IMG/VR virus record: IMGVR_UViG_3300020048_003770
Span: 1 to 64,000 of that record
Reading direction: 5' to 3' (one strand)
Length of the DNA: 64,000 nucleotides
Source of the DNA: a virus
Shown piece by piece: positions 6,917-63,666 of this stretch. The position numbers and the translations under genes were made by a program. Under the pieces are notes generated by a model. The model had not been told where the DNA came from. It did not search any database and saw only the letters and a program-made list of their open reading frames with translations. Position 1 is the stretch's first letter, and each line of letters starts with the position of its first letter.

Positions 6917-7237
6917 ATGTCGTTATTGTATTGTTTGTTGTGTGGAGAAATCGATATGCCTAAATTTAAAGATAAGACAACAAGGGGATATCATCAACGG
7001 ATAGACGATTACCATGAGCGAGAGAGTCAGATATTCCCCCGAAAAACAAATCATGTATGTTTAAAATGTCGGAAAGCATTTAAGTTGAATGCACATCATG
7101 AAAATCATAAATGCCCTCAATGCACAACATTATTGCATGGTCTTGCTACATGTGCGAGAGTACCTAAAATGAATGCATCTAATGGCAAATGGCAAACATT
7201 CATTAAGAGATTTTTGCCTTGGTTATCTTGGTCGTAA
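6917..7237 (+). CDS. Zn-finger hypothetical protein
   Basis: CLKCRK...CPQC. Confidence 0.55.
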   Translation: MSLLYCLLCGEIDMPKFKDKTTRGYHQRIDDYHERESQIFPRKTNHVCLKCRKAFKLNAHHENHKCPQCTTLLHGLATCARVPKMNASNGKWQTFIKRFLPWLSWS

Positions 7238-7305
7238 CAAACAATTTCAAAAGACAAAGGAAGTAACGTTGCAAAATCCGAATAATATGAATAAGGAGAT
7301 AAAAT

Positions 7306-7686
7306 ATGTATATACAAATGGATAATGGAAACGCAATAAATTTAAAAGCAATTAATAATTCTTGGGAGATGGAAACGAAAGATGAATATTCCGATATCGC
7401 ATCTCAACCGGCACCATCTTTATCTCATAATACAATCTTGACAAAATTAAAAGAAATGTGGGATAAAGGCGATGTTAAAAATCCTGAATTCATGCGATTG
7501 GTTAGAGTATTCGAAACAAGATTTAAACAGGAAATAACAATCGGCATGCTTGATATGATTGGAGATTTGAATGAGGGATTGAACGAAAAAGAAAAAACAG
7601 TTGTGAATTGCCCTTATTGTTTTAAAAACTCTGACAATTGCGAATGTTCTGACGCAGATGTTTCATATGACATTGGGGATAAATAA
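7306..7686 (+). CDS. hypothetical protein
   Basis: AAGGAG RBS, C-terminal CPYC. Confidence 0.6.
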   Translation: MYIQMDNGNAINLKAINNSWEMETKDEYSDIASQPAPSLSHNTILTKLKEMWDKGDVKNPEFMRLVRVFETRFKQEITIGMLDMIGDLNEGLNEKEKTVVNCPYCFKNSDNCECSDADVSYDIGDK

Positions 7687-7796
7687 TTTAATTTACTGCT
7701 TGATTTTAATAAAAATTGTTGTATAATAGAATTACGAAAATTAAATAGAGGAGTTTGGAGAGAATTTTAGAAAATGTCTTTTTAAGGAGTAATCAA

Positions 7797-7889
7797 ATGT
7801 TTTTCATCAATCAACAGAATAATCAACAGAACCAAAATTCTGAGAGCAATCTTGGAATGGTGGTACAGATTATTCTGCTTGCAGTTTAA
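7797..7889 (+). CDS. Asn/Gln-rich attenuator leader peptide MFFINQQNNQQNQNSESNLGMVVQIILLAV
   Basis: AAGGAG RBS; codons 5-14 all Asn/Gln; followed by terminator and tRNA-Asn, -Gln, -Asn. Confidence 0.88.
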   Translation: MFFINQQNNQQNQNSESNLGMVVQIILLAV

Positions 7890-7908
7890 TTCTCATACCT
7901 TCCATCCC

Positions 7909-7945
7909 AAGAGGCTCTCAAATCAACCTGAGAGCCTCTTTTTTT
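7909..7945 (+). terminator. Attenuator terminator 1
   Basis: AAGAGGCTCTCA/TGAGAGCCTCTT plus U tract; 5' arm can instead pair with leader 7841-7860. Confidence 0.9.
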
Positions 7946-7968
7946 GTTCTTTTATATAGTTTTTAAAT

Positions 7969-8042
7969 TCCCATATAGTGTAATGGTAGCACGAAATACT
8001 GTTAATATTTTAGTAATGGTCCGAATCCATTTTTGGGAACTA
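7969..8042 (+). tRNA. tRNA-Asn(GTT)
   Basis: Anticodon arm AAATA-CTGTTAA-TATTT; acceptor TCCCATA/TTTGGGA. Confidence 0.8.
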
Positions 8043-8050
8043 ATTTAAAT

Positions 8051-8124
8051 TGTCTCTTGATGTAAAGGTAGCATTCAGAACTTTGACTTCTGTCGTGAAC
8101 GTTCAAATCGTTCAGAGACAACCA
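8051..8124 (+). tRNA. tRNA-Gln(TTG)
   Basis: Acceptor TGTCTCT/AGAGACA, arm CAGAA-CTTTGAC-TTCTG, CCA. Confidence 0.9.
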
Positions 8125-8142
8125 CTTATGAAAATTTTTAAT

Positions 8143-8217
8143 TCCTTAGTAGCTCAATAGTAGAGCGTCGGTCTGTTACGCCGAGGGTTGTAGGGGCGGA
8201 GCCTACCTAAGGAGCCA
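8143..8217 (+). tRNA. tRNA-Asn(GTT)
   Basis: Acceptor TCCTTAG/CTAAGGA, arm TCGGT-CTGTTAC-GCCGA, CCA; unusual T loop. Confidence 0.85.
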
Positions 8218-8755
8218 TTTTTATTATGATTGACGATTTAGAAAAATGTCCATGTCGTAGATGGGATAAGAGTGGTCAAGCTCCTTATTTGATAGACATG
8301 CCTAAAATAATAGATGACAAAAATAAACCGAACCATAATTTAAAGGTTAATTGTAAATGTTTTTGAATTAGATATCATGTTTACAAACGGATCAACTGCG
8401 GAAAATAAATCGGCTTATGAATTAGATAAGTTAAAGGATAGGTTTGGCGGTTTCGAAGGACAAAATCAAGGTCCGAGTCATACAATGGAAAATCAATGGA
8501 TTCCTAAATTACCTGGACTATTTGCATATCCAGCTCAAGCGAGGAATAAAAATGATAAAACAGATTCAGAGCAAGTTGAATGAAGCCTTACTCAATTTTA
8601 AAATAAAAAGATTGAATAAGGAGTTGAAATCTATTGCAATTGAATTTGTGCAGAATAATAAAGCCATTAAAAAAGCCATCTCTCTTAAAACTCGACAAAA
8701 GGAATTGAAAATCAAATTTGTTGAATTAAAAAGAGAAATCGCTAAATTGGACAAG

Positions 8756-9598
8756 TCATTTATAGATAATTTTATAGAATCCGATATGTCCATTTAGTGG
8801 CAAATTAAAAGAAAAGCGTGTGGTATTTACGACGACATTTGAATAAAGTATTTTAAATTCATCATTTAATGAGTGAGACCTATAAACGTCCATTAGTAAA
8901 TGGTTTGCTGGTGTTGCAGATGTTTCTACGGTTATAGTTAATAGATTATCTAAGCCATTGACCGACATTTTAATTATATTGTTATTGATTTCGGATAAGT
9001 TAAACACGTTAGATAAGTCGAAACTTTGTATATTTAATAAGATTAGTTCTGCCATTTCGGATTGAGACAAGAATAAACGTTGAATGGATGGGTCAGATTC
9101 TGAAATGGTCGTTATATCTTTTTTATAAAAGCTAATGGCAGTATTTATTCCCTTTCTATTTGGCAAGAATGTAGGTGAGCAAGGGATGGCAGGTTGGGTT
9201 AACGGGGTTAGAGGATTTATAAGTGTATTAGTTTCAGTACGGTGAGTATGTTCTATGGTGTTTCCTATGTACCAAGCGTCATAAGAGTTTACGGGGTTTA
9301 ATTTATGACCGAACCATATATAGTTATTCCCATTGATTTGTTTATAGCATTTATGGTTGTTGATGGTATATGGTTGTATTGCATAATAGCCTAATTTATT
9401 GGAGATATCAGAGTCATTTATTGATTTGATAGTTCCGTTATAGAGTTTCCATCGGTCTTGCCATATTTTGATAGATTCATTGAATGTTCCGGAGACAACA
9501 AGATATTCTGATACATTATTAGTAACATCCGTTTGAGCGAAAGTCATTATTTTGAGTAATGGCAGTAATAAGAAGGCTAATATCAACAATTGTTTCAT
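8756..9598 (-). CDS. Secreted hypothetical protein
   Basis: Signal peptide MKQLLILAFLLLPLL; C-terminal GFYKI. Confidence 0.65.
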   Translation of the reverse strand: MKQLLILAFLLLPLLKIMTFAQTDVTNNVSEYLVVSGTFNESIKIWQDRWKLYNGTIKSINDSDISNKLGYYAIQPYTINNHKCYKQINGNNYIWFGHKLNPVNSYDAWYIGNTIEHTHRTETNTLINPLTPLTQPAIPCSPTFLPNRKGINTAISFYKKDITTISESDPSIQRLFLSQSEMAELILLNIQSFDLSNVFNLSEINNNIIKMSVNGLDNLLTITVETSATPANHLLMDVYRSHSLNDEFKILYSNVVVNTTRFSFNLPLNGHIGFYKIIYK

Positions 9599-13335: not shown

Positions 13336-13860
13336 ATGCAACCATTCATAATAAATAAACGTACCAATTTCAGTGTCGTTAAACTTATTGACCAAGATTT
13401 GAAATTTCATGATAAAGTCTATATAGCAGATGCAATTAAAAAAGCTACAGAAGAACGTTTAGATTTAGTTTGTTTCCAGTTACCTTCTGATAATCAATTG
13501 GCGTTATGTAAGATTCTTGATTATGGAAAGTGGAAGTATAGAGAAGAAAAGAACAAGAAGAAAGTAGCGGCTAAAGTTATATCGGAAGTTAAAGAGATTA
13601 GATTTACGCCGGTTATAGGTGATAATGACGTTGATCATAAATTAAAACAGGTATTTGATTTTCTCGAAGAAGGGCATGAAGTTTTAATGGTTATGCAATT
13701 TAAGGGGATATATCGTCGTCATTTTGAGATTGGTGAAGAAAGAATGCAGTTCATATTGGATAAATGTAAACATGTTGGTGAAGTGGTAAACTATAAAAAG
13801 ATGAATAATCAAATTATGGTTAGGATGAAGAAACAAAAAGTAAAAAAGGAGGAGAAATGA
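13336..13860 (+). CDS. infC: Translation initiation factor IF-3
   Basis: LDLV...CKILDYGKWKY, VKEIRF.P.IG.ND...K, FLEEG. Confidence 0.92.
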   Translation: MQPFIINKRTNFSVVKLIDQDLKFHDKVYIADAIKKATEERLDLVCFQLPSDNQLALCKILDYGKWKYREEKNKKKVAAKVISEVKEIRFTPVIGDNDVDHKLKQVFDFLEEGHEVLMVMQFKGIYRRHFEIGEERMQFILDKCKHVGEVVNYKKMNNQIMVRMKKQKVKKEEK

Positions 13861-18657: not shown

Positions 18658-18754
18658 AAATAGTTCTTGCTTTTTGAAATAAAATGGTATAATATACATA
18701 CAACGATTAAATAAAAAGAGGAATTTGAAAGAAAATAAAGAAACATAACAGGTA

Positions 18755-18844
18755 ATGAAAATGAACATAAATACAATCCATATCCCAGAACATATTGAGA
18801 TTCCCGAACCTATTGGTAAGGGTTATGGATGTGTTATGTCGTAA
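18755..18844 (+). CDS. Ile/His/Pro/Glu-rich attenuator leader peptide MKMNINTIHIPEHIEIPEPIGKGYGCVMS
   Basis: Codons 8-20 only I,H,P,E; followed by terminator and tRNA-His, -Ile, -Glu, -Pro. Confidence 0.88.
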   Translation: MKMNINTIHIPEHIEIPEPIGKGYGCVMS

Positions 18845-19940: not shown

Positions 19941-20015
19941 TAGGGATGAGGTGTAATGGTTTGCACATCTCGTTTGGGTCGAGAGGGAGGAGTTCGAGTC
20001 TCACATCCTTAACCA
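19941..20015 (+). tRNA. tRNA-Pro(TGG)
   Basis: Arm TCTCG-TTTGGGT-CGAGA, acceptor AGGGATG/CATCCTT, CCA. Confidence 0.82.
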
Positions 20016-26107: not shown

Positions 26108-26191
26108 ATGAACACAAAACAGAACATATTTAGCTTTTTTAGCTTTAGACACCCTTCATGGACTTTGAAGGTTGGTTATGTTATGTTTTAA
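26108..26191 (+). CDS. Phe(/Ser)-rich attenuator leader peptide MNTKQNIFSFFSFRHPSWTLKVGYVMF
   Basis: FSFFSF run; followed by terminator and tRNA-Phe. Confidence 0.85.
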   Translation: MNTKQNIFSFFSFRHPSWTLKVGYVMF

Positions 26192-46519: not shown

Positions 46520-46609
46520 AAAATAGTTCTTGATTTTTAAAATATTTCTGTTACAATTGGAAAATAAATAAAGGAATATTTAACAGAAATATAGAAACTA
46601 GATTGGAAC

Positions 46610-46702
46610 ATGAATATGAACAAGCAAATAATAGGTATAGGAATAGCGGGAGCCTGCGGCGGAGCTGCAAGGCTACGGACTTTCTATGTCTGTTTATGCT
46701 AA
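46610..46702 (+). CDS. Ile(ATA)/Gly/Ala-rich attenuator leader peptide MNMNKQIIGIGIAGACGGAARLRTFYVCLC
   Basis: Codons 7-20 are I,G,A except one C; all four Ile are ATA; downstream tRNA-Ala, -Gly and a TAT-anticodon RNA. Confidence 0.87.
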   Translation: MNMNKQIIGIGIAGACGGAARLRTFYVCLC

Positions 46703-47937: not shown

Positions 47938-48022
47938 GCGGGAGTAACTCACCAATCTTATGAATTGGGCAGTATAATTAGAGTAATGGTGCATGTTGGT
48001 TCAAGTCCAATCTCCCGTACCA
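47938..48022 (+). tRNA. Non-canonical tRNA-Ile(TAT), anticodon hairpin nested in D arm
   Basis: GCGGGAG/CTCCCGT-A-CCA, T arm GTTGG-TTCAAGT-CCAAT, hairpin CCAAT-CTTATGA-ATTGG inside ACTC/GAGT. Confidence 0.7.
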
Positions 48023-54058: not shown

Positions 54059-54192
54059 GGGGAAGTAGCCAAATGGAAAGGCACTATTATTCGGAAATAG
54101 CAAACAGCGATTATTACTTAAATTGTTTAATAGCAATTTCTTATCTAAACGCTTACAAACTTTTGGGGGTTCGATTCCCTCCTTCCCCACCA
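54059..54192 (+). ncRNA. tRNA-like/Y-like RNA 1 (about 70-nt module in variable arm)
   Basis: GGGGAAG/CTTCCCC-A-CCA, D arm, T arm, module AGCG...ACTT-stem-CTTAT...CGCT-TACAAAC. Confidence 0.8.
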
Positions 54193-54282
54193 CTTTAAAA
54201 TAATTAAAATAAATATTGATTTTTGAAATAATATTTGTATAATAATGATACGAAACGATTTACTTGATCTTTAATAATTTAT

Positions 54283-54418
54283 GGAGAGGACGCCTAACGG
54301 TAGGGCACTATTCAGTTAAAATAGCAAAAATACAGCGATTATGCCTTCAATTGTTTAACCGCAATTGCTTTATGAACGCTTACAAACATATTAGGTTCGA
54401 CTCCTAAACTCTCCACCA
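54283..54418 (+). ncRNA. tRNA-like/Y-like RNA 2 (paralog of RNA 1)
   Basis: GGAGAG/CTCTCC-A-CCA, same module, different anticodon loop. Confidence 0.8.
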
Positions 54419-54446
54419 CTTTTAATTTAGCGTATGAAATATGACG

Positions 54447-60209: not shown

Positions 60210-61382
60210 TCAAGCGAGGGCAGCTTGACTCACGTCAAGTCTGACACCCTCTCGCCAGCAGGATGATGTCCCATCCTTTAAATCATTTAAACCTCTCTTA
60301 ACTATATTTATAGCTGCGTTCATATCTCTATTATGAGAAGTCAAACACTCAGGACAAACCCACTCTCTATCTTTTTGAGTTAATTCATTGTTCTTATATC
60401 CACAGGAACTGCATGTTTTCGTACTGGCAAACCATTTATCAATATGGTGAATAATTTTTCCATATTCCAAAGCTTTATTTTCCAATATTCCCATGAAATT
60501 AGAAAATCCAAGATCATTTATCTTCTTCCCATGTTCTTTTTTCATTGAACTGATATCCAAAGTTTCAAAAAACATAACATCATAAGTTTCACATAATTGT
60601 TTTGCAAGTTTGAAATGATAATCTAATCTTTTATTTGCAACTTTCTTATGTAATTTAGCCAATTGATGTTTTGCTTGTTGGTAATTATTTGAACCTTCAG
60701 TCTTTCTTGATAATGTCTTGTTCGCTTTGGATATCTTGTTTCTATTTTGTTTGAAAAATAGTGGAGCTTTTATTTTGGTTCCATCATCTTTAACTAGAAA
60801 ATCCGTACATCCGAAATCAAAGCCTGCGGTTTCACCCGTCATGGAAATTAATTCAGAATCATTTTCTAATTCGCAAACAATATAAACATACCAATCCTCT
60901 GATTTATCTTTTTTAAGTGTAATGCATTTTATTTCTCCTTTTGTTTCTCTTGATTTCCAGTATTTGTAAATTCTGTTATTTATTTTGATTTGGTTGAACG
61001 GCAATATTTTGTATCCATCTTGTTTGAAGGTAATGCTTGCATAGGATCTAACTTTTTTGAATGATGGAGGGCTTACTTTTCTAGTTTTGTTTTTCTTTTT
61101 GCAATTATCAAAGAATGCCTTGTATCCTTTTTGGATTCTATCTGTAATTTCTTGAATAGCTTGAGCGTTTACTTTTTTCCAGAATGAATATTTTTCTAAT
61201 TTTTTCAGTTTTGTGATATGTTTTTGGAGTTGAAATTTATTGAGGGATTTTCCGAATAGTTTGTAATATCTATAGTGGAGAGCGATGCAGTGGTTATAGA
61301 TATTGCCTGCTATTTTGGTTTGTTCATTCAGGAATTTGTTTTTCTTTGAATGATATAATTTATATTTGAATGTCTTTATCAT
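60210..61382 (-). CDS. tnpB: TnpB RNA-guided endonuclease
   Basis: KTFKYKL HTH, GFDFG, FFETL, HNRDMNAAINI, Zn ribbon. Confidence 0.94.
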   Translation of the reverse strand: MIKTFKYKLYHSKKNKFLNEQTKIAGNIYNHCIALHYRYYKLFGKSLNKFQLQKHITKLKKLEKYSFWKKVNAQAIQEITDRIQKGYKAFFDNCKKKNKTRKVSPPSFKKVRSYASITFKQDGYKILPFNQIKINNRIYKYWKSRETKGEIKCITLKKDKSEDWYVYIVCELENDSELISMTGETAGFDFGCTDFLVKDDGTKIKAPLFFKQNRNKISKANKTLSRKTEGSNNYQQAKHQLAKLHKKVANKRLDYHFKLAKQLCETYDVMFFETLDISSMKKEHGKKINDLGFSNFMGILENKALEYGKIIHHIDKWFASTKTCSSCGYKNNELTQKDREWVCPECLTSHNRDMNAAINIVKRGLNDLKDGTSSCWREGVRLDVSQAALA

Positions 61383-61539: not shown

Positions 61540-61682
61540 GTTTATTTATTCAATACTTTTCAAATAATTCCTTTATTTGTAAATGAGAAAATAATTTAAA
61601 ATAGTTCTTGATTATTAAAAGGAGTTATGTATAATGATTAGGAACATTAAATAGATTCGAGATTTGGAGAAGGAATAAAATT

Positions 61683-61760
61683 ATGTATATTAAAACGAAA
61701 ACAGTAGAAAAAGCAACGGTATTCAAAAAAACCGTTATGGGCTTATTCTGTTTTGTTTAA
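61683..61760 (+). CDS. Lys/Thr/Val-rich attenuator leader peptide MYIKTKTVEKATVFKKTVMGLFCFV
   Basis: 12 of codons 4-18 are K,T,V; followed by terminator and tRNA-Lys, -Val, -Thr, -Thr. Confidence 0.88.
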   Translation: MYIKTKTVEKATVFKKTVMGLFCFV

Positions 61761-62581: not shown

Positions 62582-63193
62582 ATGAATGAAATAAAAATAG
62601 AAAATATTCAAAAATATTATAATGACGGACATTCTTGGAGAGAAGTAATTGAAGAATTCCATACGGGCTGGAAAACGATACAGAAACTAGTTAGAAGTGG
62701 GAAGTTGATTTCTAGAAGTTTATCTGAGAGTACTAAGCTGGCATATAAAATTGGGAAAATAGTAAAAGTGCATACAGAAGAAAGTAAGAAGCATCTATCG
62801 GCAATTGCAAAGAAAAGGGGATTGGGTGGCGATAGACCGAGTAAGCATATTGAATATAACGGCTTTAAATTATGTTCGACATATGAATTGAGAGTTGCAA
62901 AAATTTTAGATAAAAGTGAAATAAAATGGATAAAACCAAAAACTACGTTTGGGTGGACTGATTTAAATAACGAAAAACACACATACCATCCGGACTTTTT
63001 TTTGCCGGATTTTAATGTCTATTTAGATCCGAAAAACAGTTATTGCATAGAAAGAGATAAAGAAAAAATTAAAAGGGTTAGAATGGAGAATATGGTTAGC
63101 GTTTTTATTATTCCGATAGAAGTTATAAAAAAATGGGAAAATAAAATAATAATAAGCATACAAGATATAAATCAAGATACGGAAGGTTTGTAG
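62582..63193 (+). CDS. PD-(D/E)xK homing-type endonuclease
   Basis: STYE, YHPDFFL..FNVYLDPK; N-terminal HTH and HTEESK repeat. Confidence 0.8.
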   Translation: MNEIKIENIQKYYNDGHSWREVIEEFHTGWKTIQKLVRSGKLISRSLSESTKLAYKIGKIVKVHTEESKKHLSAIAKKRGLGGDRPSKHIEYNGFKLCSTYELRVAKILDKSEIKWIKPKTTFGWTDLNNEKHTYHPDFFLPDFNVYLDPKNSYCIERDKEKIKRVRMENMVSVFIIPIEVIKKWENKIIISIQDINQDTEGL

Positions 63194-63220
63194 TTCTAAG
63201 GTGAAGGACATATGTCAAAA

Positions 63221-63264
63221 TTTGTAATAAGAACTATGGGGTTTCGATACCTCTGCCGGCTCCA
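63221..63264 (+). pseudogene. 3' half of a tRNA-Thr(TGT)-like gene; possible 5' half at 62498-62532
   Basis: TTTGTAA, T arm, TGCCGGC-T-CCA. Confidence 0.45.
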
Positions 63265-63270
63265 TTTTTT

Positions 63271-63390
63271 GCCAAAGATGCTTAGGAGTTCGATTCTCCT
63301 TCGTTCCATTTGACGGGACGGATGGTTCACAAAGTGCTACGGTGACACGGTTCGCTACTGTATCGGGTTCGATTCCCGACTTTGGCTCCA
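63271..63390 (+). ncRNA. Expanded tRNA-like RNA with two T-arm-like hairpins
   Basis: GCCAAAG/CTTTGGC-T-CCA; AGGAG-TTCGATT-CTCCT and TCGGG-TTCGATT-CCCGA. Confidence 0.6.
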
Positions 63391-63591
63391 TTTTTAGAGG
63401 AATGATATGAATATAAAAAACGAGATAGAACTTGATGCCGCCCTTGAACACATAAATGATAATTGGCATTTATTAGATATTCCAGATGATGCCGATTCTG
63501 AATTGGTTACTAAACGCGATAATCTTCTTAAATTAATTTATGATGCTGAAGAGTACGAGAAGAAATATGTTTTTGATTAATATAAGTGCAT

Positions 63592-63666
63592 GGATTGCAA
63601 GCTTTTATGGTGAAGCAATAGATTCTTAATCTTTGGAACGGGGTTCAAGTCCCTGGAGATCTACCA
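63592..63666 (+). tRNA. tRNA-Lys(CTT)
   Basis: Loop TTCTTAA, T loop TTCAAGT, CCA; imperfect stems. Confidence 0.72.

Follow-up and report, generated by a model that had tools for sequence, protein, structure and literature searches.

A probable ribosome-mediated attenuator with Asn/Gln codons ahead of Asn and Gln tRNA genes in a virus genome that carries four sister cassettes

The first 64,000 nucleotides of the IMG/VR virus record IMGVR_UViG_3300020048_003770 (hereafter the window; the whole record is linear, 161,288 bp long, 34% G+C and estimated to be 87% complete) contain a short open reading frame (ORF) with ten consecutive Asn and Gln codons, followed by an intrinsic terminator and by Asn and Gln tRNA genes. 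We consider it probable that this unit, called cassette 1, is a ribosome-mediated attenuator of the trp/his type, which would sense the decoding of Asn and Gln codons and gate the transcription of the phage tRNA genes. A preliminary description of the sequence had proposed an Asn/Gln leader able to sequester the 5' arm of the terminator, and this core reading is supported by the computational analyses presented below. Cassette 1 is one of five cassettes of the same genome that share a promoter, an ORF of 25-30 codons, a terminator and tRNA genes.

The order of the parts of cassette 1, all on the plus strand, is confirmed: a promoter, an AAGGAG sequence, an ORF of 30 codons, an intrinsic terminator, then tRNA-Asn(GUU), tRNA-Gln(UUG) and tRNA-Asn(GUU). 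The sigma-70-type promoter (7700-7727) is composed of a -35 box TTGATT (7700-7705), a 16-nt spacer and an extended -10 element TGTATAAT with TATAAT at 7722-7727; it has 10 of the 12 consensus matches in a sigma-70 scan, which phage-specific promoters would escape. The predicted 5' untranslated region (UTR; 7734-7796, counted from the deduced transcription start) carries a motif, ATTAAATAGAGGAG..TTTGGAGA, which is common to cassettes 2, 4 and 5. The Shine-Dalgarno (SD) sequence AAGGAG (7784-7789) lies 7 nt upstream of the ATG at 7797; SD cores are found ahead of 78 of the 141 long ORFs of the phage (55%), versus a background of 10%. The leader ORF (7797-7889) has 30 codons plus TAA and encodes the peptide MFFINQQNNQQNQNSESNLGMVVQIILLAV. 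The three tRNA genes that the preliminary description placed behind the leader are all recovered by both ARAGORN and Rfam: the first tRNA-Asn(GUU) at 7969-8040 (Rfam tRNA, 61.4 bits), tRNA-Gln(UUG) at 8051-8124 (55.2 bits) and the second tRNA-Asn(GUU) at 8143-8217 (52.3 bits). The two tRNA-Asn copies are only ~55% identical (41/75). A promoter scan between the terminator and the tRNA genes gave no credible candidate.

The run of ten Asn/Gln (N/Q) codons after the AAGGAG was also found as previously described. This sensor run corresponds to codons 5-14 (7809-7838), which read AAT CAA CAG AAT AAT CAA CAG AAC CAA AAT, i.e. five Asn (AAT four times, AAC once) and five Gln (CAA three times, CAG twice). 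It is partly made of a 12-nt tandem duplication (AATCAACAGAAT / AATCAACAGAAC) and sits 130 nt upstream of the Asn/Gln/Asn tRNA genes. Over the six frames of the 161,288-bp genome it is the longest N/Q run, the runner-up having five codons. From the six-frame frequency of N/Q codons, 0.091, about 1e-5 runs of such length are expected; the ten-codon run is not due to chance.

Three RNA structures are predicted in the leader region. The leader hairpin H1 (the "1:2" structure, or anti-antiterminator; 7812-7881; -25.3 kcal/mol alone) pairs the sensor codons at 7812-7824 with 7868-7881 and includes an inner hairpin at 7837-7858. It is a third element that the preliminary description did not include. 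The antiterminator (AT, the "2:3" structure) pairs 7841-7860 with 7902-7920 (-34.5 kcal/mol as a hairpin), and its 3' arm holds the entire 5' arm of the terminator. The intrinsic terminator (the "3:4" structure; 7909-7945; -20.4 kcal/mol) has a 12-bp stem (7909-7920 / 7929-7940), an 8-nt loop and a run of seven Ts (7939-7945), and ends 23 nt upstream of the first tRNA gene. It is among the six strongest plus-strand terminators of the genome, four of which belong to the five cassettes. H1 and the AT overlap at 7841-7881 and the AT and the terminator at 7909-7920, so that these structures are mutually exclusive. In these models H1 would complete a trp-like 1:2 / 2:3 / 3:4 scheme in cassette 1.

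We then compared the pairing energies with those of shuffled sequences. The AT duplex reaches -24.9 kcal/mol (RNAduplex) versus -10.5 +/- 2.5 kcal/mol for 1000 dinucleotide shuffles, only one of which attained the observed value. The pairing of 7841-7860 with 7902-7920, which the preliminary description had proposed to sequester the 5' arm of the terminator, is therefore significant. The full leader region also folds far better than its shuffles (z = -5.25), and H1 is part of its minimum free energy (MFE) structure. When the transcript is allowed to grow, the MFE structure is H1 for RNAs ending at 7885-7915, the AT for ends at 7920-7928, and H1 plus the terminator from 7934 on. To account for the ribosome, we folded RNA truncated at the terminator loop, a footprint of 29 nt being forced single-stranded. 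With the ribosome on codons 1-11 the 5' arm of the terminator is sequestered with a probability of 0.88-0.90, and with the ribosome on codons 15-23 this probability is 0.52-0.60.

In the scheme that we propose, three points are inferred: that the leader is translated, which way the switch works and what its physiological signal is. Transcription would start from the promoter at 7700-7727, and the nascent RNA would fold first into H1. A ribosome loaded at the AAGGAG/ATG would then reach the sensor run, whose ten codons make up the 5' strand of H1. A shortage of Asn-tRNA or Gln-tRNA would slow this ribosome on the early sensor codons, with H1 open and 7841-7860 free; the latter segment would pair with 7902-7920 once this is made, the terminator would be blocked, and the polymerase would read into the Asn/Gln/Asn tRNA genes. 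If decoding is fluent, the ribosome would cover 7841-7860 as 7902-7940 emerges, the terminator would form and the transcript would end at the T run. For an RNA free of ribosomes, the predicted stable state is H1 plus the terminator. The outcome would be a negative feedback holding the supply of exactly those tRNAs that the unit encodes. The distances fit such a race: the front edge of a ribosome starting from 7797 would arrive at 7841 after about ten codons, the length of the sensor run, and the polymerase, having just passed the 3' end of H1, would complete the AT 3' arm over the same span of nucleotides. Since these distances are matched, any delay on the sensor codons would leave 7841-7860 free when its partner emerges.

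The four sister cassettes differ in their codons and tRNAs. Cassette 2 has its leader at 18761-18844 (MNINTIHIPEHIEIPEPIGKGYGCVMS) and the genes for tRNA-His(GUG), tRNA-Ile(GAU), tRNA-Glu(UUC) and tRNA-Pro(UGG). Cassette 3 has its leader at 26108-26191 (MNTKQNIFSFFSFRHPSWTLKVGYVMF) and a tRNA-Phe(GAA) gene; cassette 4, of the Lys/Thr/Val (K/T/V) type, has its leader at 61683-61760 (MYIKTKTVEKATVFKKTVMGLFCFV) and the genes for tRNA-Lys(UUU), tRNA-Val(UAC), tRNA-Thr(UGU) and tRNA-Thr(CGU). The leader of cassette 5, of the Ile/Gly/Ala (I/G/A) type, lies at 46610-46702 (MNMNKQIIGIGIAGACGGAARLRTFYVCLC), with genes for tRNA-Ala(UGC), tRNA-Gly(UCC) and an Ile(UAU)-like tRNA. ARAGORN finds 18 tRNA genes in the record, all of them inside the window. 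It misses tRNA-Pro(UGG) of cassette 2 (19942-20011; Rfam, 37.3 bits), which completes the Ile/His/Pro/Glu (I/H/P/E) set. The Ile tRNA-like gene of cassette 5 (47938-48019; Rfam tRNA, 31.1 bits) has the anticodon loop CUUAUGA (UAU, Ile/AUA); its D arm is truncated and its extra arm long, and it fits the I/G/A leader with its four ATA codons.

A sigma-70-type promoter like that of cassette 1 heads the other four cassettes too. The sequences upstream of the promoter and in the 5' UTR are alike among cassettes, while the sensor runs and the terminators are not. A 5'-UTR motif, ATTAAATAgAgGAg..TTTGgAGA, is located just past the -10 box of cassettes 1, 2, 4 and 5 (7734-7775, 18700-18745, 46560-46600 and 61640-61675); it could be an initial transcribed region, a processing site or the site of a regulator.

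To determine how closely leaders and tRNAs correspond, each leader was scored against each tRNA set. The best ten-codon windows have 10, 10, 4, 9 and 8 matching codons on the diagonal and at most 4 elsewhere, and only one of the 120 permutations attains the observed diagonal sum. No run of its kind in the genome is longer than the I/H/P/E run, with 13 codons, and the same is true of the I/G/A run, with 9. The correspondence extends to isoacceptors: the run ahead of tRNA-Ile(GAU) contains ATC/ATT and that ahead of the Ile(UAU)-like tRNA contains ATA four times, and in the K/T/V leader the codons AAA, ACA, ACG and GTA correspond to the anticodons UUU, UGU, CGU and UAC found behind it. This match at the level of isoacceptors favours the sensing of tRNA over that of amino acid. 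As for the suggestion made in the preliminary description that Asn and Gln are grouped by way of the GatCAB transamidation route which they share in many bacteria, such a shared pathway is not needed, because the other cassettes group I/H/P/E, K/T/V and I/G/A, which have no such common pathway.

The pairing potential is found in the sister cassettes as well. Among 1000 shuffles, 0-12 attain the energy of the observed AT duplex in cassettes 1, 2, 4 and 5; in cassette 3 the signal is weak, 79 of 1000 attaining it. Folding of the four other cassettes with the ribosome footprint gave the same drop of sequestration past the sensor run, weakest in the I/G/A cassette.

We next examined relatives of the phage on contigs from metagenomes of lakes, soda lakes and microbial mats. 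In these relatives the neighbouring coding DNA has 82-90% identity, and the 88 nt at 7809-7896, sensor run included, are 100% identical in all of them. The probability of such invariance is ~1e-4 at 10% divergence and 6e-7 at 15%. Not even a synonymous change is found in these 88 nt, which indicates a constraint on the RNA and on codon identity. The promoter hexamers are likewise invariant, with 7 substitutions in the 16-nt spacer and several changes in the 5' UTR, and the SD and the ATG are kept. In the leader ORF the sole differences are at codons 3 and 4. Over 7797-7947 we counted six differences: codons 3 and 4, a 1-nt insertion behind 7897, positions 7901 and 7924, and C7908>U. None of them breaks a pair of H1, of the AT arms or of the terminator stem, and four lie at unpaired positions outside the sensor run. 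The sole change at a pair of the AT arms is C7908>U, by which a G-C pair becomes G-U; the insertion behind 7897 falls in the inner AT hairpin. The terminator stems are invariant, and the sole change in the terminator (7924) is in the loop.

The tRNA genes found behind the conserved leader of the relatives are different. They encode a 75-nt tRNA-Gln(UUG) and an 88-nt tRNA-Asn(GUU), in differing order and number, and are only ~65% identical to any tRNA of the window, i.e. non-orthologous. By sequence comparison, the tRNA genes thus appear to have been exchanged behind a conserved leader with the Gln/Asn specificity retained. One lake relative is devoid of the first Asn tRNA gene, and another relative has neither the leader nor the Gln/Asn tRNAs. 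On the other side of the cassette, the 126-aa ORF at 7306-7686, directly upstream in the window, is absent from all relatives; there, cassette 1 directly follows a homologue of ORF 6917-7237, and the indel (7227-7678 in the window) ends exactly at the promoter region.

These observations bear on the possibility of a classical amino-acid sensor, which would respond through tRNA charging to Asn/Gln (nitrogen) starvation and control mainly the genes of small proteins at 8226-8797, the tRNAs being passengers. Small conserved ORFs do follow the tRNA genes of cassette 1 on the same strand, and a ribosome is unable to distinguish a missing tRNA from an uncharged one. We nevertheless find this possibility very unlikely: an extra tRNA is no relief for amino-acid starvation and such an output would serve no purpose; in cassettes 1, 3 and 4 no other gene separates the terminator from the tRNAs, and in cassette 2 only one 50-codon ORF does so; the tRNA specificities continue to fit the leader after an exchange of the tRNA genes; and the choice of isoacceptor codons (ATA versus ATC/ATT) is not expected from amino-acid sensing.

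Two further cassettes can be followed in the relatives. In the Phe cassette the run FSFFSF is unchanged and later codons show non-synonymous changes (RH>SE, T>I, Y>C), and two AT pairs change in a compatible manner (C-G to U-G and U-G to U-A). This pattern indicates selection on the sensor codons and the RNA, not on the peptide. In the I/H/P/E cassette the sensor run is retained except for one stretch, HIEIPEP being replaced by HIILPEP; the terminator has been replaced, and with it the 3' half of the leader. With this replaced half, the antiterminator is not the MFE structure of the prefix RNA. In the relatives, the cassette-2 terminator and the His-like tRNA are separated by an HNH endonuclease gene (contig L038, 12474-13175).

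One may ask from these data whether the leader is simply a conventional small gene whose N/Q-rich peptide ends in a hydrophobic tail, or a short non-coding RNA that has a terminator of its own, the tRNAs being expressed by leaky read-through or from an unrecognised phage promoter and the codon match having no regulatory role. The C-terminus of the peptide, GMVVQIILLAV, is hydrophobic like that of small membrane peptides, gene callers call the same 30-aa ORF in the relatives, and a phage-specific promoter would not appear in the scan described above. This explanation seems to us quite unlikely, since it accounts neither for the match of five ORFs to their own tRNAs at the level of isoacceptors nor for the complementarity between the 3' part of each ORF and the 5' arm of the next terminator. 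Moreover, in the Phe and His/Ile/Pro/Glu cassettes of the relatives the C-terminal part of the peptide is variable or replaced while the sensor run is kept with at most one substitution, and the lack of synonymous changes over 88 nt in cassette 1, next to genes of about 85-90% identity, points to a constraint on RNA.

The polarity of the switch is another matter. In all five cassettes the 5' arm of the AT begins 0-3 codons past the sensor run, which is the classical geometry of a stall leading to read-through. The same parts could in principle serve another polarity or another signal, i.e. a feed-forward loop in which fluent N/Q translation opens the terminator, or a general report of translation capacity. 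In the footprint model, a ribosome parked at the stop codon (7887-7889) leaves the 5' arm of the AT uncovered and the AT is allowed again (p 0.87), and a stall on the last three sensor codons (12-14) partly masks this arm (p 0.67-0.72). We regard these alternatives as unlikely: a feed-forward loop could never start because the tRNAs are behind the terminator, and a sensor of general capacity has no need for ten codons of two amino acids, nor for five leaders matched to their tRNAs. Each of the rival explanations considered here leaves the fivefold isoacceptor match, the complementarity or the pattern of conservation unexplained.

Several points nevertheless weigh against an attenuator that releases the tRNA genes upon stalling. 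Given the partial masking at codons 12-14, the polarity does not appear fully fixed by geometry in our models. Folding with a ribosome footprint, the check suggested in the preliminary description, gave the expected shifts for the nascent RNA but does not discriminate for the complete leader-terminator RNA, which at equilibrium always adopts H1 plus the terminator, whatever the footprint. Since the full-length RNA always prefers the terminator, the decision of the switch must be kinetic, as in the classical cases. The switch would thus depend on an assumed kinetic race and on an assumed coupling of transcription and translation in whatever host the phage has; some bacteria, e.g. Bacillus subtilis, are reported to lack tight coupling. 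The stop codon of the leader lies inside the AT loop, and not on the 5' arm of the AT as in trp. The CAG codons require wobble reading by the UUG anticodon. Finally, the conservation of cassette 1 is of limited resolution: the enrichment of differences in unpaired positions is modest (the unpaired positions, 39 out of 151, contain 4 of the 6 differences; hypergeometric p ~0.04, hand-computed), and the relatives are too close for double compensatory changes, a single G-C to G-U change being observed.

The organisation of cassette 1 resembles that of the enterobacterial attenuators (trpL, hisL, pheL, leuL, thrL, ilvL): a short promoter-proximal ORF with a ribosome binding site and a run of regulatory codons, three mutually exclusive structures (1:2, 2:3 and 3:4), and an intrinsic terminator with a U tract. 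The closest are the multivalent leaders of thr and ilvGMEDA, thrL and ilvL sensing two amino acids like the cassette 1 leader would; the ten-codon sensor run is similar to that of hisL, which has 7 His codons. In contrast to these systems, the output of cassette 1 is tRNAs and not biosynthetic enzymes, so that the loop would close on tRNA supply; the system is phage-borne and present in five copies with different codon sets, and the choice of codons tracks the isoacceptor. To our knowledge, the genes regulated by the leader-peptide attenuators described so far all encode proteins of amino-acid biosynthesis or transport, or synthetases, whereas the first three genes behind the cassette 1 terminator are tRNA genes. 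This output is a novel departure, which touches membership of the classical set and not the mechanism. Our search of the full-text literature gave no relevant account of tRNA genes, phage-borne or not, being controlled by a leader peptide or an attenuator.

Two other systems deserve comparison. In pheM-pheST of E. coli, leader-peptide attenuation also controls a component that decodes the sensed codons; there the output is a synthetase that raises charging, here it is tRNA, and there is no sequence relationship between the two. T-box riboswitches share with cassette 1 the competition of antiterminator and terminator and the response to the state of one specific tRNA. However, they bind the uncharged tRNA by a specifier codon and the T-box sequence, without need of a ribosome or an ORF, and regulate synthetase and amino-acid genes; cassette 1 instead has a well-formed ORF that is predicted to be translated. 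Neither the T-box (RF00230) nor any other cis-regulatory family is among the Rfam matches listed for 7680-8240, at the gathering threshold or at E<=1; those listed are the tRNAs and two weak, terminator-driven sRNA matches only. The Rfam leader families (His_leader, Thr_leader, Trp_leader, Leu_leader, Phe_leader and others) match neither the window at the gathering threshold nor 7680-8240 at E<=1.

Elsewhere in the record, the phage encodes a PhoH/PIN protein, a RecD2-type helicase and a DNA methylase. An IF3 homologue (IF3_N + IF3_C; E 1e-12 to 1e-14) is present at 13336-13860 and kept in the relatives (L038, 8892-9416). An RNA ligase of the T4 Rnl1 type is encoded at genome positions 141170-142366 (L024:17170-18366; PF09511, E 5e-18; phrog_562); in T4 this ligase mends tRNA cleaved by the anticodon nuclease. 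Two IS605-type TnpB genes lie on the minus strand (989-2137 and 60210-61382), the second directly upstream of cassette 4. The nearest relatives of TnpB in species genomes are nearly all cyanobacterial (top identity 40%, Microcoleus), which may be taken as a weak hint of the host.

Other searches for relatives were negative. In the INPHARED phage collection the sole match was at the level of a tRNA, to a Pseudomonas phage. Scans of IMG/VR with two neighbouring proteins found no relatives, and a scan of IMG/VR with the DNA pattern of the N/Q run returned just unrelated N/Q-rich coding DNA without tRNAs. The 850-aa protein next to cassette 2 has no homologue but itself in a set of 5.8 billion proteins, and the search with a topoisomerase-like protein gave bacterial-type sequences only and recovered no relatives of the phage.

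Additional tRNA-like sequences are present in the window. Two tRNA-like genes, at 54059-54189 and ~54282-54420, are each right behind their own TTGATTTTT...TGTATAAT promoter, without a leader ORF; each has an insertion of ~55 nt and both are missed by ARAGORN, the first matching the Rfam tRNA model with 46.9 bits over 131 nt. Upstream of a tRNA-Lys(CUU) gene at 63592, the region 63170-63400 contains tRNA-like fragments with T-arm-like GGTTCGATTCC motifs and acceptor-like ends. They are called by no tool and may be decayed or unusual tRNA genes.

The purpose of phage tRNA genes has been a matter of debate for about fifty years, the proposals being codon compensation, replacement of degraded tRNAs and evasion of tRNA-cleaving immunity (PMC10264068, PMC12409363). 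In particular, phage tRNAs have been proposed as substitutes for host tRNAs lost to tRNA-targeting defences (PMC10264068). It is possible, if doubtful, that the cassettes are sensors of such an attack in an inducible counter-defence: a host anticodon nuclease or another tRNA-targeting immunity would deplete particular host tRNAs, ribosomes would stall on the matching leader, and replacement tRNAs would be released only at that point. The phage tRNAs would then possibly be nuclease-resistant, each cassette serving one set of targets. The anticodons of cassettes 4 and 1, the Rnl1-type ligase and the IF3 gene are circumstantial support for this idea.

The regulation of phage tRNA genes has hardly been addressed so far. 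If the attenuation proposed here is true, the phage would gauge decoding speed codon by codon and replenish exactly the tRNAs that are limiting, which would be direct evidence that tRNA shortage during infection acts as a selective pressure. Classical attenuation would be extended to an RNA product and to sensing at the level of isoacceptors. The cassettes would represent modular, codon-specific sensors of ~150 nt, with five specificities in one genome, usable as reporters of tRNA availability. The sequence of a leader alone would then predict which tRNAs a phage expects to lose.

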